Source: Bacillota bacterium
GTDB lineage: Bacteria; Bacillota; Clostridia; Christensenellales; CAG-917
Direction: 5' to 3'
DNA: 64,000 bases
Assembly: GCA_023665365.1 (NCBI GenBank)
Contig: JAMPEA010000001.1
Location: 83,914-147,913 of the forward strand
Within the stretch, counting starts at the first letter, position 1, and each line of letters begins with the position of its first letter. Made by a program: the position numbers and the translations under genes. Below the pieces are notes generated by a model, which saw nothing but the letters and a program-made list of their open reading frames with translations, made no database searches and was not told where the DNA came from. Below, one piece after another: positions 2,025 to 37,200 of the stretch.

Positions 2025-2348
2025 ATATGCGAGATTAGTCTGTAAGCCGAGTTCTGTCTTAGACGGTCATCTATCTAGATACCGCATCTCTGCGATATTC
2101 AAGCGATGTGCGGAGCGTGCGGGCAACACTTATGCTCCAATCTTGCATCGGGGTGGGGTTTACATCGCGCATTGTCGCCAAATTGCGGGTGAGCTTTTAC
2201 CTCGCCTTTCCATCCTTACCGCATACGCGGCGGTTTTTTTCTGTTGCACTGTCCTTAAAGTCGCCTTTACAGGGAGTTACCCTGCACCCTTGCCCTGTGA
2301 TGCTCGGACTTTCCTCGAATATTTCACGCGACCGTCCGGCTAACTCGC
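2025..2348 (-). ncRNA. rnpB: RNase P RNA, bacterial type A
   Basis: Minus strand contains GAGGAAAGUCCGAGC, CAGUGCAACAGAAA..ACCGCC, GGUAAGG..GAAAGG..GGUAAAAGC.CACC, GUAAACCCCACCC and ACAGAACUCGGCUUACAG in the order seen in E. coli M1 RNA. The P1 helix is GCGAGUUAG (2348..2340) paired with CUAAUCUCGC (2038..2029). Confidence 0.93.
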
Positions 2349-2354
2349 AAAATT

Positions 2355-2383
2355 GTTATAGCATATTTTTTATATGTATGCAA
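2355..2383 (-). promoter_or_regulatory. Sigma-A type promoter of rnpB (TTGCAT-17-TATAAC)
   Basis: -35 at 2383..2378 and -10 at 2360..2355. The predicted start is G2348, the first nucleotide of the P1 strand. Confidence 0.6.
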
Positions 2384-2423
2384 GCACATTGCTTGCAGAA
2401 TTTAGCTGCGGACAGTAATTAGA

Positions 2424-2457
2424 TAAAAAATACGAGTTAGTCCGTCCGGCTAACTCG
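2424..2457 (-). terminator. P1-like hairpin plus U tract at the repeat junction (copy 1)
   Basis: Minus strand reads CGAGUUAG-CCGGACGGA-CUAACUCG (perfect 8 bp stem) followed by UAUUUUUUAU. Confidence 0.55.
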
Positions 2458-2534
2458 CAAAATTGTTATATCATATTTTTTATATGTGTGCAAGCACATT
2501 GCTTGCAGATTTTTAACTGCGGATAGTAATTAGA

Positions 2535-2568
2535 TAAAAAATACGAGTTAGTCCGTCCGGCTAACTCG
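2535..2568 (-). terminator. P1-like hairpin plus U tract at the repeat junction (copy 2); first terminator met by recN transcription
   Basis: Same hairpin and U tract as at 2424..2457. It lies about 60 nt downstream of the recN stop. Confidence 0.55.
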
Positions 2569-2623
2569 CAAAATTGTTATATCATATTTTTTATATGTGT
2601 GCAAGCACATTGCTTGCAGATTT

Positions 2624-4315
2624 TTATTGCAAGCTATCCTTATATCTCTGCGCCCATGCTTTCATTTCTTCGGCGTGCGGTATGGCAAACCTACTGTAAT
2701 CGTTGCCGCCAATCAGACGCGCCACCTCGTCGGTATCGTCGTCGAGTAACGTCACGTGCGTAAGCGTCTTTCCGTTTTCGGTGGATTTACTTATCAAATA
2801 ATGGCTGTCCGCCATTGCCGCAAGGCTCGGCATATGCGTGACTGCGATGACTTGACGACCGCGGGATATATTGCAAAGTTTTTCAGATACCACAGCAGAG
2901 ATATTGCCCGAAATCCCCGTATCTATTTCGTCGAAAACCATAGTGCCGATGCCGTCAATACCCGCAACTATATTTTTGAGCGCAAGCATAAAACGCGACA
3001 TTTCACCGCCGGATATAATCTTTGCGAGCGGTTTAAGCGGCTCTCCGACGTTCGGCGAAATCAAAAATTCCACCGTATCCGCACCGTTTGAGGTTATATC
3101 GTCAATTTCTGTTGCGGTTTTAACGTCAACCTTAAAAGTCGAGCCGCCCATGCCGAGGTCTTTCAACTCTTTAATTATGGATTTCTCAAACTCGACTGCG
3201 ACCTTAATGCGCAAAGCGGTCAGTTTTTGCGCACATTCCAAAAGACGCTCGCCGCTCTTTTTGATTTCTCTTTCGAGTATTATAACGCGGTCGCCCGCAT
3301 TCGACAAAACGTCGGCTTCTTCCTTGGCTTTGACGTAAAAATTTTGCAAGGACTCGTAATTGCCGCCGTACTTTCTTAAAACTGCGCGGACTTCTTCAAG
3401 CCTGCTTTCGATTTTGTCTGCCGAGCGACTGTCGAAATCGAGCTTGTCAAGCATATCTGAAAGCGTTGCGCTGATATCCTCGATTTCGAGTTTTGCGCTG
3501 TCAAGCCTGTCGGTGAGCGCGGGAATATCCTCGTCGTACGACGCAATCGTATTGAGCACCGATGCCGCGCTTTTAAGCTCAGCGCCTACACCGCCATTAT
3601 CATAGCCGTCAAGCGCTGACTTTGCCGACTGCAATGCCGACAAAATCTTTTCCGTATTGCGTATACGTTTGCGTTGGGCAAGCAAAGTTTCCTCCTCGCC
3701 CTCTTCAACGTTTACGCGCTCGATTTCTTCGAGTTGATAATTCAGTATATCGAGCCGTCTTTCTCTCTCGGCGCTGTCGCCGTATCTCGATAGCTCGCGC
3801 TTGAAATCGCTATATATATTGTAGGCTTTTAGAGTATCTAATTGGGCGTTTTTGATTTTACTTTCGCCGATAGTGTCCAAAAGCGCGATGTGCGTAGAAC
3901 TTCTGAGCAATGATTGATGCTCGTGCTGTCCGTGTATATCGACAAGCAATTCCGTAAGCCCTTTGAGGATTGAAAGCGTCGTAACTCTGCCGTTTATTCT
4001 GCATTCGTTTTTGCCCTCGGCTGTCATCTTGCGGCGTAATATCAAAATATCTTCCGCTTCTATGCCGACGTCGTCGAGATAGGTTGAAATCTGCGGATTT
4101 AAATACTCCTCGAAAACAGCCTGCACAACCGCATAATCCGTTCCGTAGCGTATAAGAGTTTTGTCCGCCCTTTCGCCGAGAACGAAATTAAGCGAGTCTA
4201 TGATGATAGACTTGCCCGCGCCCGTTTCGCCGCTAAGAATATTCAGCCCGTTTTCAAGCGTAAGTTCAAGCTTGTCTATCAAAGCGACGTTTTCAATGCA
4301 CAACTGTCTCAGCAT
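2624..4315 (-). CDS. recN: DNA repair protein RecN
   Basis: 563 aa. N-terminus is MLRQLCIENVALIDKLELTLENGLNILSGETGAGKSIIIDSL (Walker A). It has an SMC-like coiled coil, a C-terminal GGEMSRFMLALK signature and a DEIDTG Walker B. Confidence 0.95.
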   Translation of the reverse strand: MLRQLCIENVALIDKLELTLENGLNILSGETGAGKSIIIDSLNFVLGERADKTLIRYGTDYAVVQAVFEEYLNPQISTYLDDVGIEAEDILILRRKMTAEGKNECRINGRVTTLSILKGLTELLVDIHGQHEHQSLLRSSTHIALLDTIGESKIKNAQLDTLKAYNIYSDFKRELSRYGDSAERERRLDILNYQLEEIERVNVEEGEEETLLAQRKRIRNTEKILSALQSAKSALDGYDNGGVGAELKSAASVLNTIASYDEDIPALTDRLDSAKLEIEDISATLSDMLDKLDFDSRSADKIESRLEEVRAVLRKYGGNYESLQNFYVKAKEEADVLSNAGDRVIILEREIKKSGERLLECAQKLTALRIKVAVEFEKSIIKELKDLGMGGSTFKVDVKTATEIDDITSNGADTVEFLISPNVGEPLKPLAKIISGGEMSRFMLALKNIVAGIDGIGTMVFDEIDTGISGNISAVVSEKLCNISRGRQVIAVTHMPSLAAMADSHYLISKSTENGKTLTHVTLLDDDTDEVARLIGGNDYSRFAIPHAEEMKAWAQRYKDSLQ

Positions 4316-4362
4316 AATTTCCTCTGTATCGAAACGAAAATAAAATAACCGTAAGACGACGG

Positions 4363-4821
4363 TTATTTATTGAGCAAAGTTTCAAGCCTTTCGCGCACGA
4401 TTTCTGTGTTGTCGAGGCTGTCGATAGCAACGAATATCGTATTGTCCCCTGCGATAACTCCAAGCACTTCCTCATAGCTCAGCTTATCGATAAATTCGGC
4501 GGCAGGACCTGCGCTTCCGACCTCGGTTTTGAGGACGACGAGATTTTGCGAACTGCGTATGGATATAACCGTATTTTTAAACATATTCAAAAATTTATCC
4601 GAAGCGTTCGTCTCTTTTGTGCGCTGAACGGCGTACTTATAATGACGACCGTCCGAAGAAAGAGTTTTGATTATGCCCATATCCTTAATATCGCGCGAGA
4701 TTGTAGCTTGCGTGATATTGAAGCCTTCGCATTTGAGTTTTTCGACAAGTTCTTCCTGAGTATCGATGTCGTACTTTGAAATAATTTCCAAAATTTTGAG
4801 TTGACGGTTTGCTCTTATCAT
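4363..4821 (-). CDS. argR: Arginine repressor ArgR/AhrC
   Basis: 152 aa with a winged-helix N-terminal domain (QEELVEKLKCEGFNITQATISRDIKDMG) and a C-terminal GVIAGDNTIFV motif. The argR-recN adjacency is conserved. Confidence 0.9.
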   Translation of the reverse strand: MIRANRQLKILEIISKYDIDTQEELVEKLKCEGFNITQATISRDIKDMGIIKTLSSDGRHYKYAVQRTKETNASDKFLNMFKNTVISIRSSQNLVVLKTEVGSAGPAAEFIDKLSYEEVLGVIAGDNTIFVAIDSLDNTEIVRERLETLLNK

Positions 4822-4880
4822 TTTATTCCCCTTGTTATATGTATTTTGAGAGGTCTAATCGCTTAAAATCAATCTGCCGA

Positions 4881-5684
4881 TTATTTAAACGTTGTGCCCC
4901 ATCTATTCATTTTAGTAAGCAGTTTCGAGTAAAAATTATCCTCTTTGCAGGATAAAAATGCAGCCTTTTTTTGCGAGCGCGACACGTTTACGACCCCGCC
5001 CTTTTTAAGCCCTCCGTTGTTTGCGCCGTCAATAGAAACTGTGGCGCAAAGCTCGCCTGATAACCTTACCTCTATCTCGGATTTCGAGCTTACGACAAGC
5101 GGACGCGAATGCAGCGAATGCGCGCATATCGGAATAATCAAGATAGCCTCCACGTTCGGAGCAAGCACGGGACCGCCCGCCGAAAGCGAGTATGCCGTTG
5201 ACCCCGTAGGAGACGCGACTATAAGCCCGTCGCTGTGGAACGTGTCGGCAAATTTTCCGTCCACGCTTACGTCAAGAGTTATCGGACGGTTGCCTGCGGT
5301 TTTGATGACCACTTCGTTTAACGCGTTAAATTGCGCCTCGCCGTTGATACCTACATCAAGCAGCATACGTGAAATCGGCTTACCTGCTTTTAAGCAATTC
5401 ACCACCTCGCCGCAATCGGCGTTCTGCTCATACTCTGTCAAAAAGCCCAAATTGCCGAGATTTACACCCAAAATAGGAATATTTTTTCCGTTCAAGGAGC
5501 GCACTGCGTCCAGCACCGTTCCGTCTCCGCCGAAAACCAGCACCCTGTCCGTATCCGAGGCAATTTCGCTTGAATTGGAATATTCACGCACAGTGCAATC
5601 GCTGTCGGCTCTCAACAAATCGAGCACTCCGACGCGCGTAAAATCTTCCGTCATATTGGGTTTTGTGATGACCGCTATATTCAT
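4881..5684 (-). CDS. nadK: NAD kinase
   Basis: 267 aa with GGDGT, NLGNLGFLTE and TGSTAYSLSAGGP motifs. Confidence 0.93.
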   Translation of the reverse strand: MNIAVITKPNMTEDFTRVGVLDLLRADSDCTVREYSNSSEIASDTDRVLVFGGDGTVLDAVRSLNGKNIPILGVNLGNLGFLTEYEQNADCGEVVNCLKAGKPISRMLLDVGINGEAQFNALNEVVIKTAGNRPITLDVSVDGKFADTFHSDGLIVASPTGSTAYSLSAGGPVLAPNVEAILIIPICAHSLHSRPLVVSSKSEIEVRLSGELCATVSIDGANNGGLKKGGVVNVSRSQKKAAFLSCKEDNFYSKLLTKMNRWGTTFK

Positions 5685-5809
5685 TTTAATACCTTTTGCG
5701 CTCCGTATTATACACTAATCGAAAATATAATTCAAGCTAAAATGCATAATTGGGCAAAAAATGTATAATTTTTATTCAAAACCAGATTATGCGAAAATCG
5801 TCCGAAAGG

Positions 5810-6523
5810 TTAAAGCGTTTTTTTAACGTACAAGAGATATTCGATATTTTTATTTTGATAGCGTATCGGCGACGTGGCTATACCTACGATTTGAAATCCG
5901 AGCGAGATTGCGCATGCCTTGATTCCGTCAAGCGCGCGGACGCGCAATTTTTCATTTGTGACAATCCCGCTTTTGCCGAGCGCGGATTTATCAAGTTCAA
6001 ACTGCGGTTTGACTAGTACGACCGCCTCGCCGCCACCGTTCAGTATGCGAAATATTTCCGGCAACACCAGCTTTAACGAGATAAAGCTAACGTCCGAACA
6101 TACGAAATCGACCTTGTGAAAATCGCTTAGAAGTTCCCTCGCGTTTGACCTTATAAATTTCACCTTGCCGCTTTCCAAAAGCGAAGGATTTAAAGCGCAC
6201 TCGGCTACGTCAACAGCGTATACGTATTTTGCGCCGCGCCTTAAAAGGCAATCTGTAAATCCGCCGTTAGAGCAACCGATATCGGCGCATACTTTGCCCG
6301 TCACGCTAAGCCCGAACTTCAAAAACGCCTCTTCGAGTTTATATGCCCCCTGCGAAGCGTATCCGTCGTCAAAAATTTCTACTACGTCGCCATCGTTTAC
6401 GCTATAAGAAGGTTTGACCACAACGTTGCCGTTGACAAAAACTCCGCCCGTTTTTATCAGGTTTTCTGCATAAGTGCGCGAACGCATATCATAGGTGATT
6501 TGTAAGTAACGGTCAAGTCGCAT
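5810..6523 (-). CDS. tlyA: TlyA-family rRNA 2'-O-methyltransferase (S4 domain plus FtsJ-like domain)
   Basis: 237 aa. MRLDRYL...N-terminal S4 domain and a DIGCSNGGFTD SAM-binding motif. Confidence 0.9.
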   Translation of the reverse strand: MRLDRYLQITYDMRSRTYAENLIKTGGVFVNGNVVVKPSYSVNDGDVVEIFDDGYASQGAYKLEEAFLKFGLSVTGKVCADIGCSNGGFTDCLLRRGAKYVYAVDVAECALNPSLLESGKVKFIRSNARELLSDFHKVDFVCSDVSFISLKLVLPEIFRILNGGGEAVVLVKPQFELDKSALGKSGIVTNEKLRVRALDGIKACAISLGFQIVGIATSPIRYQNKNIEYLLYVKKTL

Positions 6524-6603
6524 AAAAAATACTTTATTTCGATATTCTATTCATAAATTTTTGTATTTTGAAAGTAACACGCGATATTTGAGACAACAAA
6601 AAA

Positions 6604-7377
6604 TCAGTCGTTTTGTTCGTCGATATTCTTTTCGTCGGACGCGCGCTTCACTTCCTTATTGGATTTCTTTTGCAAACTATCCTTTTTGCGGATTTTGCGC
6701 TCGTCCCTATTGAATATCGACACTATGCGAGCTACGAACATAACGAAATCTTTGGAGTTGTTTATGGCGATATTTTTCATAAACGCCTTGCCGCCTATCG
6801 TGACTGCGGATACCACTGCCGAGATGATGATTGTAAGCCACCTTTGCCACTCATCGCCGAGCGAAATTGCGATTTTGACAACGACCGCGGCAGAGCACGC
6901 ACCCGATATGATGCCGAAAATATCGCCGATTACGTCGTTACAGATACTCGACACAGTGCCGCTGTTTCGCACAAGCCAAAGCGCGGTCTTTGCGCCGTGT
7001 ACCTTTCTCGACGCCATAGAAGCAATGGGCGCAATATCGCATGAAGTCACCGCCACGCCGATGGAGTCGAAAAGTATACTGGCGAGTATCAAAAACGCGA
7101 GCAGCAATATGATAATCACTATCTGCTCGGCAGAAGCCGTAAGCTCGCTTAAAAAACTGAAAAAGCCCGCCAATACGAACGAAATGACGGATGCTTTGAG
7201 CCACCAAATATTGCGTTTTTTCTTTACCTTTTTGCGCTTGCCGTCAGCCGACTCGGAAGTTTTGGCTATTTCCTTGTCAAGTGGTTGCGCAGACTGAGCC
7301 GACACGCGTTCCGGCACAGCGGGCGTGTTGTCTGAATCGTCTTGAACGCTTAAATCTTTATCGTTTAAAGTATCCAA
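6604..7377 (-). CDS. Four-TM membrane protein with basic N- and C-terminal tails; candidate OapA-like partner of the upstream large ncRNA
   Basis: 257 aa with a TTG start (AAGGAG 4 nt upstream). Four hydrophobic helices, a KRKKVKKKR patch before TM1, an NDVIGDIFG (DxxxD) motif in TM3 and a lysine/arginine-rich C-terminal tail. It lies directly upstream of tlyA-nadK-argR-recN. Confidence 0.6.
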   Translation of the reverse strand: MDTLNDKDLSVQDDSDNTPAVPERVSAQSAQPLDKEIAKTSESADGKRKKVKKKRNIWWLKASVISFVLAGFFSFLSELTASAEQIVIIILLLAFLILASILFDSIGVAVTSCDIAPIASMASRKVHGAKTALWLVRNSGTVSSICNDVIGDIFGIISGACSAAVVVKIAISLGDEWQRWLTIIISAVVSAVTIGGKAFMKNIAINNSKDFVMFVARIVSIFNRDERKIRKKDSLQKKSNKEVKRASDEKNIDEQND

Positions 7378-7442
7378 AATGCTCCTTGTAATCTATATTA
7401 TGTAGCCTAATGCTAACGTATGCTCCAATAAATATATCCGCC

Positions 7443-7787
7443 CAAGCAAAAGATTTTGCGAATGTTGCGGGAGTTGCTATGTCGGCAAAAGTGAACAGCA
7501 AAAATCTTTTGCGCAGTAGGACAAGGAAGCCTCACCCTACACTTGTTTTGATTTTCAAGCGCCGCAGGCGCGTCACCAAGCAAAAGATTTTGCGAACGCA
7601 GCGGGAGTTGCTACGTCAGTAAAAGTGAACAGCAAAAATCTTTTGCGCGGTAGGACAAGGAAGTCTCGCCCTACACTTGTTTTGATTTTCAAGCGCCGTA
7701 GGCGCGTCACCAAGCAAAAAATTTTGCGAACGTTGCGGGAGTTGCTATGTCAGCAAAAGTGAACAGCAAAAATCTTTTGCGCGGTAG
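7443..7787. repeat. Tandem 134 bp repeat, about 2.6 copies, rich in GCAAAA-N2/3-TTTTGC palindromes
   Basis: Units start at 7443, 7577 and 7711 (caagcaaaagattttgcgaa...). Copies differ at a few positions. No credible ORF is present. Confidence 0.95.
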
Positions 7788-7789
7788 AT

Positions 7790-8440
7790 GCAACAAAATC
7801 AAGTCACGGCTTTGGCAAAGCAAAATTTTTTTGCTTTGTCGTGCCGTTTACGCTGATTTTGTTGCGAGGTGGCAACAACTTGGGTAAACCTTGCGTCTTA
7901 GGTTCGGTAGGATTTCCCTGTGCGAAAACTTGCCGTCGCCGTGCAAGACGTTTCCGATTACTTCGCACATTCTTGCGAAAACCGAATCGCCACTTAGTAC
8001 ACACTATAATCCCCAAGTTGTTACGCGAACGAACAGTCTAGAAGATTTCCTTGGCAGATTCCCTCCGACCTTATCTTTTTTTGCAAAGCGGATTTCGATG
8101 AGCAATCGCCGATGCGTATTGGCCATACGGCAAGAGCGTGAATCTCAAATCCCTCCGCCTCACTCAAAGCAGGCTACACTGTACACAGCACGTAAGCACC
8201 GCATAAACAGGTTTCACCCCAGTCAGTAGAGGATTTGCGCCTCTACCGAGTTGGGTCTCCACGGCAGTTGGGTCGTGATTTGTATGCCATTACAAGTCGC
8301 CCAAAAACCTTAACTCCCAGCAACAGCCCCGATTTGGGCAAAAGAAGCCATCACCAGAAACTTCATCGATATGCCCTTCGACGATATTTTACCCCCGTCT
8401 CCGGCACGGCGGAATCTGACTAGAATACTGCGCCACCATT
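7790..8440 (-). ncRNA. Large (about 650 nt) structured non-coding RNA, OLE-like by size and gene context
   Basis: No long ORF in any frame. A consensus promoter sits just upstream. Long-range complementary segments: GGUGGC (8437..8432) with GCCACC (7873..7868), and an 11 bp pair at 8022..8012 with 7884..7874. Local hairpins include 8226..8246. A roughly 75 nt 3' rod spans 7790..7865 (12 bp outer stem plus 10 bp inner stem). The context (RNA, 4-TM protein, tlyA-nadK-argR-recN) matches what I recall for OLE RNA loci. Confidence 0.6.
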
Positions 8441-8446
8441 TATATT

Positions 8447-8474
8447 ATTATATCAATACTTTAAAATATGTCAA
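8447..8474 (-). promoter_or_regulatory. Consensus sigma-A promoter (TTGACA-16-TGaTATAAT) driving the large ncRNA
   Basis: -35 TTGACA at 8474..8469 and extended -10 TGATATAAT ending at 8447. It lies directly after the recG stop. The predicted start is near 8440. Confidence 0.7.
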
Positions 8475-8489
8475 CCGATAAGATTTTAA

Positions 8490-10520
8490 TCAACTGTTTA
8501 AAGTGACCTTTTTAAGCTCGCCTAAAAACGCATCCACGCGCGATTTTGAGCGTCGCGTCAATGCCGCAAGTTCTTCAAGAGTGAGATTTGAAAGCCTTTC
8601 GTCGGCATATTTTTTTGCGTCGGATAAAATTTCCGCCGACATTTTAAGCCCGAAAATCGGCGTAACGGAGCCGCCGCTTTGGCGCGTCCCCATAAAATCG
8701 CCCGCTCCTCGCATAGCAAAATCCGCCTCGGCAAGATACTGACCGTCGTTGTGCGCACAAAAGGTAGAAAGTCTGTCCTGCGCCTTATCGCTCGTCCCGT
8801 TTGAATGTACGTAGCAATGCGCCTCCGAGCCGTCCCTCCCTACGCGCCCGCGCAACTGATGCAGAGATGCCAACCCGAATCTGTCCGCTCCGAGTATAAA
8901 AATTTCGCTTGCAGAAGTATCTATGCCCACCTCTACGACCGTCGTTGCAACGAGCACTTGCGCTTTTCCGCTTGCAAACTCTCGCATAGCAAGCTCTTTT
9001 TCCGCATCGCTCATCTTTCCGTGCAGAATTCGTAAATCTAACCCATCGAATTTATTCTTATAATCTCGCATAAAGCTCTCAATGGACATTATGTCAAAAC
9101 CCTCTGCATCTACGATAGACGGACAAACTATAAAGGCTTGTTTGCCGCGTTTGCAAGCGGAGAGTATATGTTCTACGCCCTCGTCTATGCTATGCACTAT
9201 GCTTGTCTGCACGTTGGTCTTTGCATCCTCGCGCTTTTGTATGTATGAAATGCTTATGTCGTCGTAGAAAGTAAGCGCCATAGACCGAGGGATAGGCGTT
9301 GCGGTAAGCGAAAGCACGTCAACCGCGCCTTTACTTTCCAATAGACGACGTTCGTTCACTCCGAATTTATGCTGTTCATCGATGACGGCGAGCGAAAGAT
9401 TTTTGTAAGCCACGTCCTGCGAAATCAACGACTGCGTGCCGATTATACAGGATATTTTGCCCTCTTTGAGGTTTTGCAAAACGTCGCGGCGTTCGATTTC
9501 ACTGATAGACGAAGTAACCAATGCACAGTTTATGCCGAATTTATCCGCAATGCTCTTGAACTTTGAAAAGTGTTGCCTCGCAAGTATTTCCGTCGGCGCC
9601 ATAAGCGCGCACTGCTTTTTGCCAAGCGCGCTTGCAACCATAGCAAAGAAGGCAACCGCAGTCTTTCCGCTTCCGACGTCGCCGCTAACTATGCGCGACA
9701 TATAATTTTTTGAGCGCATATCGCTAAGGATTTCGTCAAATGCCTTAATTTGCGAGGGCGTAGGCACAAAATCAAGCGCATTTATAAACTCATCTATTCT
9801 AAAATTTGTCAAATTATATAATACTTTACGCGATTTTTCATCGGATTTACGAAGTTTTCGATACATTGAAAGCACGATAGCGAGGTCAAGCGACGCAAGC
9901 TCCGCCATAGCAAAAGACGCTTCATCTACACTTTTGGGATTATGTAAGCGCAAAAAGATATTCGTCATATCCTCGTTGACCGCCGCAAGTCTGCCCTCGT
10001 ATTTAGTCAACTTGATTTCATCAAGCGCATTCTGCATTATGTTTTTGAATGTGTTTTGCCCTATTATTCCCCTAAGCGGATAAACGGTATATATGTCTTT
10101 CAACTTTGAAATTTTGTTTAATCTTTCAAGTTGCGGGTTTACTACGTTAAACGCGCTGTCGTCTTTTGAAAGTCTGCCGAACAGTCTGTATTCGTCGCCG
10201 AGCTTAAACGTATCGTGAAGAAAAGGCATGTTATAAAACGTTGCCTTAAAATAAATGCGTTTATCCCCCGCAAGATTATCCGAAAAGCTCACGCTGAAAG
10301 AGCGTTTTCCTCTTGGCGACACGGCGGACACCTTTTGCACTTTGCCTTCAAACAGATTTAGCGTTCCGCGTTCGGCATCGATTACGCTTATCGGAGATTG
10401 CAAATCAATATATTTTGTCGGCAAAAAAGAAAAAAGCTCAAAAACCGATTTAATATCAAGTTCTTGCAACTTTTTTATTGTGGCATCGCCAACGCCTTTG
10501 ATTTGCGATAAAGTCAACAT
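8490..10520 (-). CDS. recG: ATP-dependent DNA helicase RecG
   Basis: 676 aa with GDVGSGKT, DEQHKFGV and QLRGRVGR motifs. Confidence 0.95.
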   Translation of the reverse strand: MLTLSQIKGVGDATIKKLQELDIKSVFELFSFLPTKYIDLQSPISVIDAERGTLNLFEGKVQKVSAVSPRGKRSFSVSFSDNLAGDKRIYFKATFYNMPFLHDTFKLGDEYRLFGRLSKDDSAFNVVNPQLERLNKISKLKDIYTVYPLRGIIGQNTFKNIMQNALDEIKLTKYEGRLAAVNEDMTNIFLRLHNPKSVDEASFAMAELASLDLAIVLSMYRKLRKSDEKSRKVLYNLTNFRIDEFINALDFVPTPSQIKAFDEILSDMRSKNYMSRIVSGDVGSGKTAVAFFAMVASALGKKQCALMAPTEILARQHFSKFKSIADKFGINCALVTSSISEIERRDVLQNLKEGKISCIIGTQSLISQDVAYKNLSLAVIDEQHKFGVNERRLLESKGAVDVLSLTATPIPRSMALTFYDDISISYIQKREDAKTNVQTSIVHSIDEGVEHILSACKRGKQAFIVCPSIVDAEGFDIMSIESFMRDYKNKFDGLDLRILHGKMSDAEKELAMREFASGKAQVLVATTVVEVGIDTSASEIFILGADRFGLASLHQLRGRVGRDGSEAHCYVHSNGTSDKAQDRLSTFCAHNDGQYLAEADFAMRGAGDFMGTRQSGGSVTPIFGLKMSAEILSDAKKYADERLSNLTLEELAALTRRSKSRVDAFLGELKKVTLNS

Positions 10521-10529
10521 ATCGGCAAT

Positions 10530-29217: not shown

Positions 29218-29763
29218 ATGGCAAAAGAGAAAACTCCCGTCAAAGCAACCCCCGCACCCAAAGCGACTGCTAAGCCCGCACCCGCGCCCAAAGCGGCTGC
29301 CGCTAAGCCCGCTCCCGCTCCTGCACCCGCATCGGCAGAAACCGTTATCGTTGAAGGCACGCCGGGCGTACCTCACGGCAAGTTTGTAATCAAGCGCACA
29401 GACAATGCAAACTTCGTTTTCAGACTCTTCGCCGCAAACAAGAAGGTTCTCGCCGTCACTGCCGGTTTCTATGCGAGCCTGTCTGCTTGCAAGAGCGGTA
29501 TCCAAAGCGTAATCAATAACGCCGCAAGCGCTCCTATCGAGGACCAGACGCTCAAAAACGTCAAAGAGCAGAAATGCCCGAAGTGGGTCATCTACACCGA
29601 TAAGAGCGGCGATTCGCGTCTCAGACTCATTGCTTCAAACGGCAATATGGTAGCCATTTCCAACGACGGTTACAAGTCCAAGGACGCCGCAAAGAAAGGC
29701 ATCGACGCTATCGCACGTGCCGCGCAAGGCGCTGACATCGTAAGAAACGACGACCTTTGGTAA
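29218..29763 (+). CDS. Tandem DUF1508 (YegP-like) domain protein with an AKP-rich N-terminal tail
   Basis: 181 aa. Two YegP-like modules (FVFRLFAANKKVLAVTAGFYASLSACKSGIQSV and RLRLIASNGNMVAISNDGYKSKDAAKKGIDAI) are preceded by KATPAPKATAKPAPAPKAAAAKPAPAPAPA. Confidence 0.75.
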   Translation: MAKEKTPVKATPAPKATAKPAPAPKAAAAKPAPAPAPASAETVIVEGTPGVPHGKFVIKRTDNANFVFRLFAANKKVLAVTAGFYASLSACKSGIQSVINNAASAPIEDQTLKNVKEQKCPKWVIYTDKSGDSRLRLIASNGNMVAISNDGYKSKDAAKKGIDAIARAAQGADIVRNDDLW

Positions 29764-29784
29764 TTGATTATCCATAGACAACTT

Positions 29785-29813: not shown

Positions 29814-29825
29814 AGGTTGTATCTT

Positions 29826-30884: not shown

Positions 30885-30889
30885 CTGCA

Positions 30890-30924: not shown

Positions 30925-30945
30925 CGAGATAGGTGATTTCAAAAC

Positions 30946-33632: not shown

Positions 33633-33638
33633 ATGTAT

Positions 33639-33667
33639 ATTATATCACGCGCCTAATTCGATGGCAA
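33639..33667 (-). promoter_or_regulatory. Promoter TTGCCA-17-TGaTATAAT placed 6 nt from the ATG (leaderless transcript predicted)
   Basis: -35 at 33667..33662, -10 at 33644..33639, ATG at 33632. There is no SD in the 6 nt gap. Confidence 0.55.
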
Positions 33668-33681
33668 GATTTAAAGGTATT

Positions 33682-34230
33682 TCAAATGGATTTTTGCTTT
33701 GCAATTTGCGTGTATTTCTTCACAAAATCGCCTTTTGCCTCTGTGTATGCGTCGCGGTTGCGCTCGTACTCCTTTGCAAGTTTCAACTTCAACTTCTCGT
33801 ATTCGCGCGCCGCGTCGGGATGAGCGTTTAGAAAATCTTTGAAATACACCTCGTCCGCGTCGCCGCTAAGTCTGAGATGCAAATGGAACACCCTTTCTGC
33901 AAAGCCCGCCGAGGTATAGCCCTTGTTAAGCGAAATCCGCCCGTTCGTCGTCGCCATAACGATATATCCCGCATTTTCAAGGATATTTGCCACACTGCTT
34001 AATTCCTCAACCGAATTAAACTCAATCAAAATGTCGATTATAGGCTTTGCCATTATGTCTTTGACGGCAGTACTGCCAACATGATGACATACGCAATCAA
34101 ACGGCAATATGTTTTTTAATAAAGCCGCTTCATCGGCATACCAATCCGCCCAACACGATTTATGTTCGCTAAGCGAAATCGGAAACAAATCCCAAAGTTC
34201 TTGAAGGGTCATCTCAGAAAGCGGTTTCAT
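33682..34230 (-). CDS. GrpB family (UPF0157, nucleotidyltransferase-fold) protein
   Basis: 182 aa. HVGSTAVKDIMAKPIIDILIE, HLHL, C-terminal Y..LK..LA. Confidence 0.8.
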   Translation of the reverse strand: MKPLSEMTLQELWDLFPISLSEHKSCWADWYADEAALLKNILPFDCVCHHVGSTAVKDIMAKPIIDILIEFNSVEELSSVANILENAGYIVMATTNGRISLNKGYTSAGFAERVFHLHLRLSGDADEVYFKDFLNAHPDAAREYEKLKLKLAKEYERNRDAYTEAKGDFVKKYTQIAKQKSI

Positions 34231-34239
34231 TTTTGAGTT

Positions 34240-34674
34240 TCACCTCGCATTTTTATAGCTTATCAAAATGTGATTGACCGCAAACAAAACAGAAAACACA
34301 ATCAGCGGAATATTTGCAAGCGCTATGCCGCTAAACAAAAATACACACGACGGCAATATTGACAGCGATAAGGCTTTAAATTTGCCGTTTTTATTCCAAC
34401 AAACAATCCAAATTATTATATACGCAAGACACAACCCGCCGTTGACGGACAGATACGCTATAAGCGCGTGGTCAAACCAAAAATCAAAGAAGGTGTACGG
34501 GATATTGAATATCATAAAAACAAAACAGCCGTATCTGCCGATTTGCTCCATTATGACAACCGCCCTATTGCCGAAAGCCTCGGTCTCATCGTCTTTATGC
34601 TTTATGGCGTAAACGATATTGGGTATCATAATAATCGCCATAATCGCAAGCCCGTAATAGTTAAACCAACTCAT
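34240..34674 (-). CDS. Small four-TM membrane protein, unknown function
   Basis: 144 aa, hydrophobic throughout. No family was recognised. Confidence 0.5.
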   Translation of the reverse strand: MSWFNYYGLAIMAIIMIPNIVYAIKHKDDETEAFGNRAVVIMEQIGRYGCFVFMIFNIPYTFFDFWFDHALIAYLSVNGGLCLAYIIIWIVCWNKNGKFKALSLSILPSCVFLFSGIALANIPLIVFSVLFAVNHILISYKNAR

Positions 34675-34675
34675 A

Positions 34676-34987
34676 TCAACGTCTCTTTTTAGGCAAAGGC
34701 GTAACGCTTTCTAAAATTTTCAAAACTTTTTCGGTCAGCTCTGCGTTTTCTATATCCAAAACGTAATGCTCTTTTGAGCCGTCGTAAGGAATTCCGCACT
34801 CAGCGTCCCTCATCAACTCGGACAGTTCTGCGAGCTTCTTAACGTATACAGTGTTGTCGCAAACGAGCAATACGGGTTTATCGTTAAGGTAAACCATATA
34901 TTCTCCGAACATTTTCTTATAGCGCACCGCAAAATCGCCGTGTATTTGCTCGCATACGAATTCAATGTAATCCACGCTTGTTGCCAT
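34676..34987 (-). CDS. TfoX N-terminal domain protein
   Basis: MATSVDYIEFVCEQIHGDFAVRYKKMFGEYMVYLNDKPVLLVCDNTVYVKK matches the TfoX_N pattern. The start is set to ATG 34987 because of the promoter geometry. The 152 aa track ORF overlaps the upstream gene. Confidence 0.7.
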   Translation of the reverse strand: MATSVDYIEFVCEQIHGDFAVRYKKMFGEYMVYLNDKPVLLVCDNTVYVKKLAELSELMRDAECGIPYDGSKEHYVLDIENAELTEKVLKILESVTPLPKKRR

Positions 34988-34993
34988 GTCCAT

Positions 34994-35022
34994 ATTGTAG
35001 CACGCAATAGATACTTTTTCAA
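34994..35022 (-). promoter_or_regulatory. Promoter TTGAAA-17-TGcTACAAT, 6 nt from ATG 34987 (leaderless transcript predicted)
   Basis: -35 at 35022..35017 and -10 at 34999..34994. Confidence 0.5.
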
Positions 35023-35105
35023 CAATTATCTTACTATAAAAACAATCCTGCATATTTGAGGAATTGCTTCGCGCGAAAGAAATTGGTAACCTGCAACAGA
35101 TATTT

Positions 35106-35654
35106 TCATTGCATTTTAGGAATATCCGCTTCAACGTTCTTTTTATTTTTGTTTTTAAAAGGGACGTAAAAGTATAAAAGATACAATGTTAAAAGCAAAA
35201 ACAAGATACCCAACAAAGAAGCGAAAACTATTCCAAACGCCAATGCGTCCCACGCTTTTACGTCTTTGCCATAACTTACCGCCCAACATACGCCTTTTCC
35301 GCGATATACGTTTCCTTTGTAAATTTCCACCTTTTCGCCAATACGCTGTTTGTCTTTTTCATACTGCTCGTAGTTCTTCAATGAGCCTCGCGCACAATCG
35401 CATTCATAAACGATTCCGTTTTCGTCAACGTAACGACACATTATTGAATAGTTGCTTTTTCTATACGTATGCAAATAAGTAATTTCCGCCTCGACGATAA
35501 TCCCATTGTCGACGGCTTCTTGAATTTTCAAATTTTCGGCATAAGCGTTAAATGAAATTGCCGTACCTATTATAAATACCGCACTAACAACTGTTAATAT
35601 TATAATCGCTTTTATGCCGAGAGGAGAAACTTTTTTGTTTGCCGAGTTTTTCAT
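35106..35654 (-). CDS. Membrane protein with N- and C-terminal TM helices flanking a beta-rich domain (DUF3592-like)
   Basis: 182 aa with topology TM, about 100 aa domain, TM. The pattern GIIVEAEITY...Y..M.RYVDENGIVYE resembles DUF3592. This is a weak call. Confidence 0.45.
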   Translation of the reverse strand: MKNSANKKVSPLGIKAIIILTVVSAVFIIGTAISFNAYAENLKIQEAVDNGIIVEAEITYLHTYRKSNYSIMCRYVDENGIVYECDCARGSLKNYEQYEKDKQRIGEKVEIYKGNVYRGKGVCWAVSYGKDVKAWDALAFGIVFASLLGILFLLLTLYLLYFYVPFKNKNKKNVEADIPKMQ

Positions 35655-35660
35655 AGCATC

Positions 35661-35689
35661 ATTATATCAAAGACCGAAAGAGTATTCAA
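35661..35689 (-). promoter_or_regulatory. Promoter TTGAAT-17-TGaTATAAT, 6 nt from ATG 35654 (leaderless transcript predicted)
   Basis: -35 at 35689..35684 and -10 at 35666..35661. No SD is present. Confidence 0.55.
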
Positions 35690-35858
35690 CCATATAGCTC
35701 GTCAAAAAATAAATAGACGTTATAGCGAGTGCTTGATTTTACGAACGCACGGCATAGCCGTGACAAGGCAGTAAGTCTGACTTGTAATATATACCACTAA
35801 ACAGAGGCTTTTTTGGCGAAGAAGTAGTAACCTAAAACGAATAATAAAAAACAGATTT

Positions 35859-36227
35859 TTATAAATTTGACAATTCATTATTAAAGCCTTGAAACCGCAA
35901 AAGAATATTATGCAGTTCGGCTATTTTGTTTTTTAAAAAGTTCATATTATTTTTATGCTTTACAATATCGTTTTTCTTAAAAAAATGATGGGCTAAATAA
36001 TTACGTTTGTCCAAAATGTATTCTAATTCTTCAATATCTTGCTTATCAAATAAATTTGTTCGTTCAGCATATCCTTTAATTTGTCCCATTGTCATAGATT
36101 GCATATCTTCAAAAAGATTATCAGCATTTGTATTTTGTGCTCTACATACTATTAGGGCTAAATTCCATTCTATGTATTGAGCATTTTCCAATATTTCGCC
36201 TACCAAATTATAAATTGTGTTAATCAT
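35859..36227 (-). CDS. Small all-helical HEPN-like protein (Rx4H motif RNYLAHHFF), HepT/DUF86-like
   Basis: 122 aa from ATG 36227 (AAGGCGG 8 nt upstream). The motif is LEYILDKRNYLAHHFF. The gene is AT-rich and lies 13 nt downstream of the 2-TM gene. Confidence 0.5.
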   Translation of the reverse strand: MINTIYNLVGEILENAQYIEWNLALIVCRAQNTNADNLFEDMQSMTMGQIKGYAERTNLFDKQDIEELEYILDKRNYLAHHFFKKNDIVKHKNNMNFLKNKIAELHNILLRFQGFNNELSNL

Positions 36228-36240
36228 TATAAATACCGCC

Positions 36241-36717
36241 TTAATGTAAAATTTTATTTCCAACACGCAATGTATAATTATTAAGCGTTAACGTACCTAC
36301 TTTCAAATTAACTCTTTCACCATTCAAATCGCATTCTAATGGGCGAGCACCAAAGAAAGAGCCTGTATGCTTATCAACTACCGCATCATCAAGCAACAAA
36401 TATGCACAACTCCACCCCAAATAAACACTGATTTCGTGCCCTTGATATGAATATGAATGGAACTTTACTCCGACAAGGGAACACAGCCAAAACACTATAC
36501 AAAAAATATCCCAAGTACCGAACAAATATAGAGGCACGATATACTTATCTTTTGTATAATACCCATATTCTTCTAAATATTCATAATATATGACTTCTTT
36601 ATCATTTATTGCAAGACTAACAAGAATTATAGTTATTATTGCAGAAATTAGGAACAACACGTTCCATACTATTTTAACAGTATTTTTCCTTTTTTGAAAG
36701 CGTTCTTTTTCCGACAT
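36241..36717 (-). CDS. Two-TM membrane protein with a roughly 70 aa C-terminal soluble domain, unknown family
   Basis: 158 aa from ATG 36717 (GAGGTG 8 nt upstream). TM helices are IVWNVLFLISAIITIILVSLAI and LYLFGTWDIFCIVFWLCSLVGV. The gene is AT-rich. Confidence 0.55.
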   Translation of the reverse strand: MSEKERFQKRKNTVKIVWNVLFLISAIITIILVSLAINDKEVIYYEYLEEYGYYTKDKYIVPLYLFGTWDIFCIVFWLCSLVGVKFHSYSYQGHEISVYLGWSCAYLLLDDAVVDKHTGSFFGARPLECDLNGERVNLKVGTLTLNNYTLRVGNKILH

Positions 36718-36744
36718 AACTAAGCACCTCACATATGTATAGTA

Positions 36745-36777
36745 ATATAAAAAGCGTGTTCCACTGAGAAACACGCT
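36745..36777 (-). terminator. Intrinsic terminator inside the 5' leader of the 2-TM/HEPN cassette
   Basis: Minus strand reads AGCGUGUU-UCUCAGUGG-AACACGCU followed by UUUUUAUAUU. It ends about 20 nt before the SD of the 2-TM gene. Confidence 0.6.
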
Positions 36778-36798
36778 GAAAAACGCACCTCTCAATGT

Positions 36799-36884
36799 TG
36801 CGACACATTTCCCAATTTTAAGGCGAGAGTGTACATTTTTACCTATAACACTCCTTAAAACTGGGGATATTCAAATGTGTCGCA
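36799..36884 (-). promoter_or_regulatory. Long imperfect hairpin of about 86 nt in the leader (candidate cis-regulatory or small RNA)
   Basis: A 12 bp perfect outer stem (tgcgacacattt / aaatgtgtcgca) is followed by cccaattttaagg / ccttaaaactgggg and agtgt / acact inner pairings. A possible promoter TTGTCA-17-TTTAAT lies about 25-50 nt upstream on the minus strand. Confidence 0.5.
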
Positions 36885-36939
36885 TATTTACTATGCCACA
36901 AAACTCAATTAAAATCAATCAATTTGATAGTGACAAATG

Positions 36940-36971
36940 AAAAAATAAAAAGCCACTATTTAGTGGCTTTT
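36940..36971 (-). terminator. Intrinsic terminator of tRNA-Ser
   Basis: Minus strand reads AAAAGCCACUAAAUAGUGGCUUUU followed by UAUUUUUU. It lies 6 nt after the tRNA CCA end. Confidence 0.75.
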
Positions 36972-36977
36972 ACATGA

Positions 36978-37070
36978 TGGCGGAGAAGAAGAGATTCGAA
37001 CTCTTGAACCGCTTGTGACGGTTACGCGATTTCCAGTCGCGCGCCCTCGACCAAACTAGGCGACTTCTCC
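36978..37070 (-). tRNA. tRNA-Ser (anticodon GGA), class II with a long variable arm and encoded CCA
   Basis: Minus strand reads GGAGAAG-TC-GCC-TAGTTTGGTCGA-GGGC-G-CGCGA-CTGGAAA-TCGCG-TAACCGTCACAAGCGGTTC-AAGAG-TTCGAAT-CTCTT-CTTCTCC-G-CCA, which folds as a cloverleaf. Confidence 0.93.
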
Positions 37071-37200
37071 AAAAGATTTGTGGAGAAGGCGTCCAAAGGT
37101 TTCACGACTTCTCCAAAGATTTATTGGGAAGTCGTCCAAACGTCCAGCGACTTCTCCAAAGATTTGTGGGAAGTCGTCCAAAGGTCTTCACGACTTCTCC
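37061..37200. repeat. Tandem 43/44 bp repeat (3 units plus the tRNA 5' end); each unit starts with the first 10 nt of tRNA-Ser
   Basis: cgacttctcc recurs at 37061 (the tRNA itself), 37105, 37148 and 37191. The spacers are about 85-90% identical. Confidence 0.95.

Follow-up and report, generated by a model that had tools for sequence, protein, structure and literature searches.

Tandem repeats which copy the end of a stable-RNA gene have been described in Escherichia coli K-12 as tRNA-linked repeats, or TLRs (Egan and Landy 1978; Rudd 1999; Stenum et al. 2021, PMC8144298). TLRs reside directly downstream of tRNA genes, and in E. coli also of 5S rRNA, in the same orientation as the gene. They come in one to five tandem copies of about 150-180 bp, and each unit closes with the same 18-21 nt as the upstream gene, a stretch which starts in the T-loop and stops at CCA. 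As checked in MG1655, the tyrT repeat is 178 bp x 3.1, with six copies of the 19-nt end, and an earlier antisense copy forms a closing helix in the tyrT unit. TLRs have been known since 1978 without an accepted origin or function, and the term is scarcely used in the literature searched. Related signatures are known from other systems. Integrative elements leave direct repeats of tRNA and tmRNA 3' ends, according to the passage of PMC9897764 which cites Reiter 1989 and Williams 2002, and Dehalococcoides ssrA islands provide an example of tandem accretion at the tmRNA site (PMC3146451). In turn, template switching creates and maintains RNA hairpins (PMC8794818).

The window analysed in this work is a stretch of 64,000 nt (assembly GCA_023665365.1, contig JAMPEA010000001.1, positions 83,914-147,913, forward strand) from a genome, coded G000, available as a bin of 58 contigs, 99.5% complete. 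The host belongs to an uncultured gut genus of Clostridia. A first-pass annotation had noticed three tandem arrays beside stable-RNA genes, and TRF, together with Rfam and ARAGORN, places them beside rnpB, OLE RNA and tRNA-Ser(gga) (Table 1). The remaining TRF match in the window is a single weak one (30 bp x 2.2 at 29251-29318). The genome-wide count that the annotation called for was carried out on crude gene calls: six of the ten large non-coding arrays of G000 reside in spacers adjacent to stable-RNA genes, whose share of all spacer bases is 7.2% (P about 2e-5), and seven out of ten do so if the same arrays are counted by hand. Once the window is excluded the figure is four out of seven (P about 1e-3). 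Arrays were found also at the SRP RNA, tRNA-Lys(ctt), tRNA-Ser(cga) and tRNA-Asn genes of G000, where they contain the 3' end of the respective RNA. The presence of arrays at stable-RNA genes is a real theme, far wider than the window, and recurs across the genus; cross-species counts given below are to be read as counts of relatives, which are not independent.

Table 1. Features of the three array loci in the window (predicted promoters and folds included)
Feature	Position	Strand	Evidence
rnpB, RNase P RNA class A	2026-2347	-	Rfam RF00010, 237.4 bits, full length
rnpB upstream array	2332-2626	-	TRF 111 bp x 2.7, 96% matches
Mini-transcript 1, P1-like hairpin GCGAGUUAG...CUAACUCG, then UAUUUUUU	2421-2459	-	Fold -15.8 kcal/mol, z -4.6
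Mini-transcript 2, identical to mini-transcript 1	2532-2570	-	Fold
OLE-side array of Family B	7442-7787	-	TRF 134 bp x 2.6, 92%
Family B copies in OLE array	about 7442-7522, 7568-7656, 7702-7800	-	Between OLE and ORF 6604-7377
OLE RNA	7853-8452	-	Rfam RF01071, 421.9 bits
OLE consensus promoter	8474-8447	-	12/12 with TG
tRNA-Ser(gga)	36978-37070	-	ARAGORN and Rfam
tRNA-Ser array	37061-37207	-	TRF 43 bp x 3.4, 85% matches
Three mini-tRNA leader units	37071-37118, 37119-37162, 37163-37205	-	Folds -14.5 to -15.3 kcal/mol
Promoter TTGTCA-17-TATAAT and structured leader before array	37216-37342	-	Promoter at 37342-37314, scan 11/12

The rnpB array consists of two mini-genes and a proximal promoter unit. 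In each unit, a hairpin, TGCAAGCAATGTGCTTGCA, is accompanied by a putative promoter, TTGCAC-17-TGaTATAAC, and by nt 1-17 of rnpB; these are followed by the complement CTAACTCG, and then by UAUUUUUU. The proposal that the unit is the 5' start of the RNA, closed into a hairpin resembling the terminal helix, proved correct both here (17 nt) and at tRNA-Ser (10 nt). The end of the mini-gene, a hairpin of -15.8 kcal/mol followed by the U tract UAUUUUUU, has the features of an intrinsic terminator, and was missed by the consensus terminator scan because the loop is 9 nt long. A strict sigma-70 scan of the 1950-2700 interval found no promoter, since the -10 hexamer TATAAC ends in C, and the invariant T at -7 is absent; the geometry TTGCAC-17-TGaTATAAC-6-G would fit an extended -10 promoter. 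In the unit, rnpB nt 1-17 and an 8-nt inverted copy precede the 3' half of the ancestral recN terminator, after which comes the promoter. The junction CGTATTTTTTA..CTAATT corresponds to the recN terminator tail of G023, a sister species with one promoter and without the array at rnpB. No further copy of the unit occurs elsewhere in the G000 genome. A related strain, X3, about 97% identical, carries one unit fewer, with a clean junction, and in G022 it is the 3' end of rnpB that is arrayed (124 bp x 2.4).

Units upstream of tRNA-Ser(gga) start with GGAGAAGTCG, corresponding to nt 1-10 of the tRNA, and continue with a loop, an acceptor-3'-like closing strand, CGACTTCCC or CGCCTTCTCC, and an A-rich spacer. 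Among 29 species of the genus, 21 carry one to five homologous mini-tRNA units ahead of the gene, and eight carry none. Units of the same array are 97-99% identical in the genus species; genus-wide, the 5' GGAGAAGTCG is invariant and all units share one derived 3' strand, CGACTTCCCACAA. The retention of units sharing this strand in 21/29 species suggests that selection has kept them. Because the promoter and the structured leader precede it, the array lies inside the predicted primary transcript. The leader, of about 95 nt, is conserved, has a consensus fold with nine compensated pairs in 11 species, and found no match in Rfam. A 5'-side array is present at tRNA-Pro as well.

Copies of the opposite end lie after tRNA and tmRNA genes, which in 33 of 36 species are followed by an element of 160-200 nt ending with an exact 21-nt copy of the T-loop-to-CCA end of that very gene. 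In G000, the last 20 nt of 14 tRNA/tmRNA genes recur downstream of the gene; end copies 20-21 nt long (0-2 mismatches) turned up for 14 genes in G000, and relatives had them for at least 12 tRNA species. All but one of the 13 strong matches to the element in G000 are directly after a tRNA or tmRNA gene, the remaining one being about 1.4 kb downstream. Arrays measure 174 x 3.1, 179 x 1.8 and 178 x 2.3 in G000, and periods vary from 158 to 200 in relatives. Units found after tRNA, tmRNA, SRP RNA and, in one relative, RNase P RNA span 124-300 nt and include a sense copy of the 3' end, most of them featuring an antisense copy in addition. Every tRNA 3' element is predicted to fold into a closed multi-hairpin structure, in which the antisense copy pairs with the sense 3' end to form the closing helix; some antisense copies, such as that of L042, pair through CCA, and there is no tRNA-like tail. 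Elements at 13 or more genes have in common a core, CTGACGC and GCTATTACG, plus two hairpins. Hairpins hp2 and hp3 covary strongly (paired cells 90.7% vs 69.7% in shuffles; cells changed on both sides, 118 vs 34), and the single-stranded motifs show no variation among 52 distinct copies. Empty and filled tRNA-Lys(ctt) sites differ exactly by a terminator, the element and 21 nt, and the Lys(ctt) and tmRNA elements of G000 are similar in the way of paralogues. At the Ala(ggc) and Lys(ttt) loci the sequence past the distal copy repeats the sequence past the gene. Three elements lie in tandem in G051, a single-contig genome. Many related elements are located at contig ends. SRP arrays occur in G000, G023 and G024, and extra partial copies in G041 and G049. 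In the SRP unit, the sequence at the junction, ahead of the 74 duplicated nt, departs from that of the gene, and yields a palindrome, caaagtttgcctatg plus ccatagggaaacttt, which is near-perfect (one mismatch).

The 3' elements resemble TLRs in position, orientation, copy number, origin of the unit end and closing helix formed by an earlier antisense copy. They reside however in another phylum, and exhibit no sequence or covariance-model similarity to TLRs: the Rfam model RtT (RF00391), which matched the E. coli control, had no match in G000 at E <= 1, and none in 14 loci scanned at E <= 0.1. Moreover, in the studied genus the pattern extends to tmRNA, SRP RNA and RNase P RNA, and includes 5'-side versions, as the leader or promoter arrays of tRNA-Ser, tRNA-Pro and rnpB. 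We know of no E. coli counterpart of 5'-side end-copy arrays. Both the rnpB and the tRNA-Ser array of the window are of this upstream type, unlike the downstream TLRs.

How did the arrays come about? We consider it an even bet that the three arrays are the local outcome of a lineage-wide copying of stable-RNA gene ends into tandem units, their immediate origins being different. The most likely origin, which the junctions support, is template switching where gene ends are rich in hairpins, and subsequent unequal recombination. During replication of hairpin-rich, heavily transcribed genes, the nascent strand would switch template at a hairpin, copy a few bases backwards, and re-prime upstream, leaving a single duplicated gene end joined through a palindrome. 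Subsequently, unequal recombination or slippage would change the copy number and homogenise the units, which may explain why units are nearly identical within arrays, diverge between species, and differ by one between strains. The tRNA 3' element family may additionally have spread, or undergone conversion, between loci. Units would be co-transcribed, either in the leader or through read-through, and a dedicated function would not be required. Template switching is supported by the short inverted copy in the rnpB unit, by the SRP junction turned into a near-perfect palindrome, and by the finding of arrays at either end of rnpB in different species; flux is indicated by the variation from 0 to 5 tRNA-Ser units between species, and by the unit fewer in X3. 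The exact difference between empty and filled tRNA-Lys(ctt) sites, the SRP arrays of several species and the enrichment beside stable-RNA genes count in favor of this account too. A mechanism shared by all arrays had been envisaged in the first-pass annotation: the rnpB and SRP junctions back template switching, but a single origin for the three arrays does not hold, as OLE differs. The hairpin nuclease SbcC/SbcD was not found above cut-off in the 99.5%-complete genome, which lends weak support to the process. E. coli has tRNA-linked repeats in spite of its SbcCD, and this counts against the argument. Quasipalindrome mutations caused by template switching similarly leave short inverted copies by existing hairpins, as seen in rnpB, SRP and tRNA-Ser units, and convert junctions towards perfect palindromes; PMC8794818, however, reports minor substitutions or insertions inside RNA genes, whereas the arrays studied here repeat gene ends in tandem. 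Local template switching alone does not account for the conserved core and covarying hairpins common to the 3' elements of at least 13 genes. The retention in 21/29 species of tRNA-Ser units with one derived 3' strand also weighs against this account.

That the arrays are artefacts of a short-read metagenome bin is extremely improbable. The 58 contigs of the bin, the many related elements found at contig ends, and a check resting on Logan contigs and not on raw reads would speak for it. Yet contigs from two samples with the same strain are identical and agree with the window at the arrays, a unitig common to two rnpB units has a word depth of 2x, and units differ at fixed positions (85-96% identity), unlike products of collapse or expansion. 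The different copy number of strain X3, with its clean junction, the tandem elements of G051, and the same pattern in the finished E. coli K-12 genome point in the same direction: the arrays of the window are not assembly artefacts. An unlikely alternative for the 3' units is that they are miniature non-autonomous elements, inserted by a tyrosine integrase at T-loop-to-CCA sites, and that arrays are tandem accretions, as genomic islands at ssrA and tRNA genes. The identity block begins in the T-loop and stops exactly at CCA, as is reported for P4-type integrases (Williams 2002). G000 hosts in tRNA-Glu(ctc) a 2.7-kb island, bounded by a 22-nt T-loop-to-CCA repeat, which encodes a tyrosine integrase and a rolling-circle Rep, and C-terminal integrase remnants lie beside arrays in G009 and G064; the discrete insert distinguishing filled from empty tRNA-Lys(ctt) sites, the core common to several loci and the paralogue-like Lys(ctt) and tmRNA elements are in line with insertion as well. 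According to this view, though, each of at least 13 targets needs a pre-adapted element carrying sense and antisense copies of the target, and no T-stem-like dyad is found beside the sense copy. At several loci post-gene sequence is repeated past the distal copy, which indicates duplication in tandem and not an insert with chromosomal flank at its border. Arrays on the 5' side, and those at SRP, rnpB and E. coli 5S rRNA, are left unexplained; to our knowledge, SRP, rnpB and 5S rRNA genes are not integrase targets. No recombinase gene was found in or beside end-copy units, which are non-coding, apart from the remnants near the arrays of the two relatives. Repeats left by integrative elements are likewise partial T-loop-to-CCA copies located downstream, several in a row, but the units studied here are 160-200 nt long and non-coding, have an extra antisense copy of the target, and share one core among at least 13 targets.

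A somewhat better, still low, probability goes to the hypothesis that units are functional co-transcribed mimics of the terminal helix, freed by RNase P on the 5' side and by 3' trimming to CCA, and acting as small RNAs, decoys or buffers for processing or binding factors. The E. coli RNAs rrA, rrB and rrF undergo transcription and processing, and in vitro they bind Hfq and CsrA; a decoy- or buffer-like role has been proposed for some of the repeats which do so; in the same account, E. coli repeats have no assigned function after 45 years (PMC8144298). In the genus, the closing of all tRNA 3' elements by the antisense-sense helix, as in the tyrT unit, the covariation of hp2 and hp3, the motifs invariant in 52 copies, and the tRNA-Ser units, placed behind one strong predicted promoter and retained in 21/29 species with an invariant GGAGAAGTCG, favor a function. 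Against it, the number of copies varies between 0 and 5, and close relatives lack entire arrays (rnpB in G023, tRNA-Ser in eight species, OLE in 28/30), and some antisense copies, as in L042, pair through CCA and leave no tRNA-like tail. Furthermore, the matched end is always that of the neighbouring gene, though a generic acceptor-like helix would suit processing equally, and this indicates an origin at the DNA level. Given the retention of tRNA-Ser units and the covariation in the tRNA 3' element, a function still deserves consideration. It is doubtful that end-copy units form a purposeful class of RNAs, buffering or regulating the maturation, stability or protein partners of tRNA, tmRNA, SRP and RNase P RNA; if they did, E. 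coli tRNA-linked repeats and Clostridia elements would be convergent answers to the same need.

The genus provides an independent, unrelated TLR-like case with far greater comparative power, offering empty and filled sites in dozens of species, 0-5 copies, 13 or more tRNA targets besides tmRNA, SRP RNA and RNase P RNA, and mirror-image 5' versions. Whether units are by-products, mobile elements or functional RNAs is therefore directly testable. In practical terms, the units cause short-read assemblies to break at tRNA genes, can be mistaken for tRNA fragments or attachment sites, and surround essential RNA genes with additional hairpins, terminators and, possibly, promoters.

The OLE-side array is, judging from its composition, a tandem of a mobile-looking dispersed repeat, with an origin apart from that of the rnpB and tRNA-Ser arrays. 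The notion that all three arrays are locus-specific thus applies to rnpB and tRNA-Ser, not to OLE. The unit was also said to reuse a motif of the OLE RNA 3' end, a view that was not confirmed: no clear copy of OLE sequence was found inside it. An array is present at the OLE locus only in G000 and G022 among 30 species. The repeat, Family B, is about 80-110 nt long, has a palindromic GCAAAA-N2-3-TTTTGC hairpin at both ends, and accounts for about 45 nhmmer matches genome-wide, after protein and tRNA genes, the copies sitting just past terminator T-tails. MITE-, REP- or BIME-type repeats similarly occur as many dispersed copies with palindromic ends; differently from these, the arrayed Family B unit can take in part of the terminal hairpin of the upstream gene, as found in the C44 array and in the OLE array of G022.

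Exactly three stable-RNA genes, each on the minus strand, were identified in the window by Rfam and ARAGORN, and each is adjoined by one of the tandem arrays that the first-pass annotation had reported beside rnpB, a large ncRNA (the OLE RNA) and tRNA-Ser. Both upstream arrays, those of rnpB and tRNA-Ser, overlap the first bases of the gene, and the OLE array lies between OLE and the next ORF (6604-7377). The idea of a theme shared by the three arrays is supported, and the observation behind it had been understated; the arrays are, however, heterogeneous. Those at rnpB and tRNA-Ser are 5' mini-gene arrays derived from the gene, the one at OLE consists of tandem copies of a dispersed repeat.

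Tandem arrays (TRF) and stable-RNA genes of the window, with further arrays of the same genome (positions carrying a contig label refer to the bin)
Feature	Position	Strand	Period x copies	Remarks
Array upstream of rnpB	2332-2626		111 bp x 2.7	96% matches
Array downstream of OLE RNA	7442-7787		134 bp x 2.6	92% matches
Array upstream of tRNA-Ser(gga)	37061-37207		43 bp x 3.4	85% matches
Weak array	29251-29318		30 bp x 2.2	
RNase P RNA class A (rnpB)	2026-2347	minus		Rfam, 237 bits
OLE RNA	7853-8452	minus		Rfam, 422 bits
tRNA-Ser(gga)	36978-37070	minus		Rfam and ARAGORN
tRNA-Lys(ctt) array			174 x 3.1	gene part: 3' end
tRNA-Ser(cga) array			179 x 1.8	gene part: 3' end
tRNA-Asn array			178 x 2.3	gene part: 3' end
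Large SRP RNA array			188 x 2.5	gene part: last 74 nt
Non-coding array	G000:C34:4439-4733		140 bp x 2.1	
Non-coding array	G000:C21:6846-7079		91 bp x 2.5	

The window (G000:C11:83914-147913) belongs to a 1.59-Mb bin of 58 contigs, 99.5% complete. Its RecN has relatives labelled, for instance, "uncultured Clostridiales UMGS1042" and "Christensenella sp. UBA7588", which identifies the source as a Christensenellales-like, uncultured bacterium of the gut. The arrays were checked on Logan contigs, from three runs of one study, containing the stretch 1800-8700. Two samples host the same strain as the window, with unitigs interrupted within the arrays, as expected; the unitig common to the two distal rnpB units has a word depth of 24 vs 12 in its neighbours, a twofold value. 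The strain of the third sample is ~97% identical, and its contig links 2481 to 2630 via 25 other letters, leaving one rnpB unit fewer. Fixed differences between units, copy-number polymorphism with a clean junction, and the occurrence of like arrays both in finished E. coli K-12 and in a relative assembled as one contig make an assembly artefact very improbable.

A TRF scan of the whole bin, crossed with ARAGORN and Rfam on selected loci, revealed four more large arrays at stable-RNA genes beyond the three of the window. Moreover, for 14 tRNA or tmRNA genes the final 20 nt recur downstream as additional sense copies. Among non-coding arrays with a period of at least 40 and a score of at least 200, 6 of 10 reside in spacers bordering stable-RNA genes, vs 7.2% of spacer bases (binomial P ~2e-5, with crude ORF-based gene calls), and the enrichment anticipated from the window is thus found genome-wide. 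The automated calls had taken the tRNA-Lys(ctt) array for coding; counted by hand, the figure is 7 of 10. Without the three window arrays, from which the hypothesis arose, it is 4 of 7 (P ~1e-3). The exceptions are one array of Family B, the dispersed double-hairpin repeat discussed below, and two unexplained arrays in contigs C34 and C21, with no detected stable-RNA gene adjoining and no Rfam match. The Family B array follows a protein gene. No array unit matches an Rfam family, and the bin contains no rRNA operon. SRP RNA arrays including the 3' end also occur in the congeneric species G023 (183 x 2.7) and G024 (296 x 2.6), and partial extra copies in two others (G041, G049). In 88 kb of SRP-centred loci, 6 of 8 TRF arrays fall within ~120 nt of the SRP gene.

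The rnpB unit consists of the hairpin TGCAAGCAATGTGCTTGCA, TTGCAC-17-TGaTATAAC, six bases and GCGAGTTAGCCGGACGG, which corresponds to rnpB nt 1-17. A strict sigma-70 scan rejected the promoter because of a -10 hexamer ending in C, and a promoter in the unit is therefore only putative. In the two distal units nt 1-17 are followed by ACTAACTCG and TATTTTTT, and fold into a P1-like hairpin (-15.8 kcal/mol) with a U tract, which in the predicted structure looks like an intrinsic terminator. That the unit copies the 5' start of the RNA and closes it into a hairpin, as proposed from the sequence, is borne out. The post-hairpin stretch CGTATTTTTTA..CTAATT matches the recN terminator tail of the sister species G023, in which the recN-rnpB gap measures ~90 nt and carries a single promoter. 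The simplest history would be that a segment starting with the recN terminator's 3' half and ending at rnpB nt 17 was duplicated in tandem, the junction gaining a templated insert of 8 nt in inverted orientation. No further copy of the unit occurs elsewhere in the genome. Among the 12 rnpB loci fetched across the genus, arrays are found only here, on the 5' side, and in G022, where the array (124 bp x 2.4) includes the last ~60 nt of rnpB, the terminator and a hairpin-closing inverted piece.

The tRNA-Ser(gga) locus comprises one strong predicted promoter (TTGTCA-17-TATAAT, 37342-37314), a leader of ~95 nt, three units and the tRNA. Each unit opens with GGAGAAGTCG, identical to tRNA nt 1-10; a loop leads on to CGACTTCCC or CGCCTTCTCC, after which comes an A-rich spacer. 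Here too the unit begins with the first nucleotides of the RNA and closes them into a hairpin, as had been noticed. Given this composition and the predicted folds of ~-15 kcal/mol, the units would be acceptor-stem mimics within the predicted primary transcript. Similar leader units (1-5 copies, period 43-73 bp) reside in 21 of the 29 assessable species, which are related and thus not independent. GGAGAAGTCG opens every unit across the genus, and most units carry a D-arm-like hairpin and the common derived 3' strand CGACTTCCCACAA. Identity reaches 97-99% inside arrays, and units differ from one species to another. Common features, within-array identity and varying counts point to one old origin, followed by concerted evolution and copy-number flux. 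In the genome of the window, a similar 5' mini-unit also resides in the leader of tRNA-Pro(cgg). The tRNA-Ser leader itself (37216-37313, minus strand) is structured and kept across the genus; three helices feature nine compensated pairs in 11 species, and no Rfam match was found. It is a candidate unclassified RNA, plausibly co-transcribed with the tRNA.

The OLE array is not locus-specific. The first-pass annotation took it as locus-specific and as reusing the hairpin motif of the OLE 3' end; derivation from OLE was rejected, matches being of only 8-12 nt, and the unit belongs to Family B, which counts ~45 nhmmer matches in the genome. Family B elements have the ends CTACCGCGCAAAA-N-ATTTTTGCT and CGCAAAA-N-TCTTTTGCTTGGTG, exist in a short and a long form, and usually reside just past the T-rich tail of terminators, after protein and tRNA genes alike. 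Among 30 species an array downstream of OLE was found only in this genome and in G022, where the unit begins within the OLE 3' terminal hairpin and also holds a Family B copy. ORF 6604-7377 (minus strand) presumably encodes the four-TM protein expected downstream of OLE, in an oapA-like position. As no terminator is predicted between OLE, its array and this ORF, the array is probably transcribed together with its neighbours. A REP-like repeat of 39-43 nt (GGGGTCCCC...CCCC/GGGG) forms short tandem arrays, detected by TRF, at more than 10 loci of the genome (contigs C1, C3, C11, C14, C17, C25, C44, C55 and C57), and one copy sits inside a Family B element (C57:3281-3424).

The units located on the 3' side of tRNA genes share a common core, and have been called Family A. 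A covariance model built from eight copies identified 13 strong copies in the genome. Twelve, all in the sense orientation, come right after a tRNA or tmRNA gene (Lys ctt, three; Ser cga and Asn, two each; tmRNA, Ala ggc, Lys ttt, Pro cgg and Arg acg), and the thirteenth lies ~1.4 kb downstream of tRNA-Ser(cga). Within the genus, 33 of 36 genomes carry Family A, and the model detected none in 24 other genera of the order. Elements are often in tandem (period 158-200 bp); the single-contig genome G051 has three consecutive ones. The elements of relatives lie 73-100 nt past the gene, and end with an exact 21-nt T-loop-to-CCA copy of their own gene, at no fewer than 12 tRNA species and tmRNA. The order of the parts is constant: terminator, antisense acceptor-3'/T-stem-3' strand, two 6-bp hairpins of locus-dependent sequence (the second loop often TAT), antisense T-loop and T-stem-5', CTGACGC, hp2, GCTATTACG, hp3, TAC and the sense 21 nt. 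In minimum-energy folds the helix formed by antisense and sense copies closes the whole element. Covariation of hp2 and hp3, measured on 52 distinct copies, is strong: 90.7% of the cells are paired, vs 69.7% in shuffles and 32-50% when slid, and 118 cells are changed on both sides, vs 34 in the control. Derivation of the core from antisense tRNA or SRP RNA was rejected, local alignments being no better than shuffles. Only a short motif, GTAAACTC(G), links Families A and B with the SRP unit (z ~4).

Sites with and without the element can be compared at tRNA-Lys(ctt). In some species CCA is followed by the ancestral terminator; in others the latter is displaced by a new terminator, the element and the 21 nt; in further species the interior differs, or mini-units of 65 nt are present. 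Within this genome, the Lys(ctt) core resembles the tmRNA element in its 5' half more than it does the Lys(ctt) elements from other species, which suggests exchange between loci.

Family A has the same architecture as the tRNA-linked repeats of E. coli. In K-12, 22 units reside at ten loci, 1-5 per locus, after a tRNA or rRNA gene, and their last 18-19 nt are identical to the gene's own 3' terminus (PMC8144298, which cites Egan and Landy 1978 and Rudd 1999). No function is established. In vitro, Hfq and CsrA bind to three of the units, those located behind 5S rRNA (PMC8144298). In MG1655 TRF reported an array of 178 bp x 3.1 downstream of tyrV. Six copies of the 19-nt end AATCC...CCA, beginning inside the T-loop, are present, and the antisense copy GCGGGGAAGGAT, also part of the unit, closes a multi-hairpin fold. 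The Rfam model of these RNAs (RtT, RF00391) has no match in our genome while matching the E. coli control, and Family A is thus an analogue, not a family member. The phenomenon belongs with the old, unexplained E. coli repeats, and extends them by a new sequence family, by new RNA targets and by a version on the 5' side. We know of no described counterpart of the 5'-side arrays, or of the SRP and RNase P cases, and literature searches retrieved none.

How the units arose may be judged from some general features. Units copy a gene end, and the junction carries a short inverted copy or is turned into a palindrome; copy number varies among strains and species, and units are homogenised within arrays. 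As the most likely origin, held with about even confidence, we favour template switching as replication passes gene ends that form hairpins and are heavily transcribed. This would have produced the first duplicated end, subsequently amplified and trimmed by unequal recombination or slippage. Template switching can generate RNA hairpins (PMC8794818). The proposed origin accounts neither for Family A's conserved, covarying core nor for the long retention of tRNA-Ser units, and two other hypotheses stay alive for this reason. The units may be functional co-transcribed RNAs mimicking gene ends, a tentative reading that both observations would suit.

The same observations would suit miniature integrative elements, a hypothesis we hold to be unlikely, slightly more so than the former. 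Differences at tRNA sites are discrete and insert-like, and Family A shares its T-loop-to-CCA block with a genuine integrase island. The latter is a 2.7-kb integrative element at tRNA-Glu(ctc) (G000:C24:1501-4202; ~500-3200 of fetched locus L077) with genes for a tyrosine integrase, an HTH protein and a rolling-circle Rep (PF23343); a 22-nt T-loop-to-CCA direct repeat borders it. Beside Family A elements a full-length parent with integrase was not found, only two gene remnants. A CTX-phage-like folded single-strand attachment site, with the closing helix mimicking the target duplex, was also considered for Family A. As for template switching, no SbcC/SbcD hairpin nuclease scored above family cut-offs in the 99.5%-complete genome; since E. 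coli has both SbcCD and tRNA-linked repeats, the absence is of little weight.

Two minor observations concern other loci. Inverted pairs of Gut-1 RNA motifs (RF01706) lie downstream of tRNA-Leu genes, taa in contig C16 (L025, 519-703) and gag in contig C15 (L026, 111-268). In the single contig of G051 (C1; loci L120 and L163) tRNA-Ser(gga) and OLE each occur twice, 1,604,858 nt apart, probably reflecting the terminal overlap of a circular assembly, not a true duplication.
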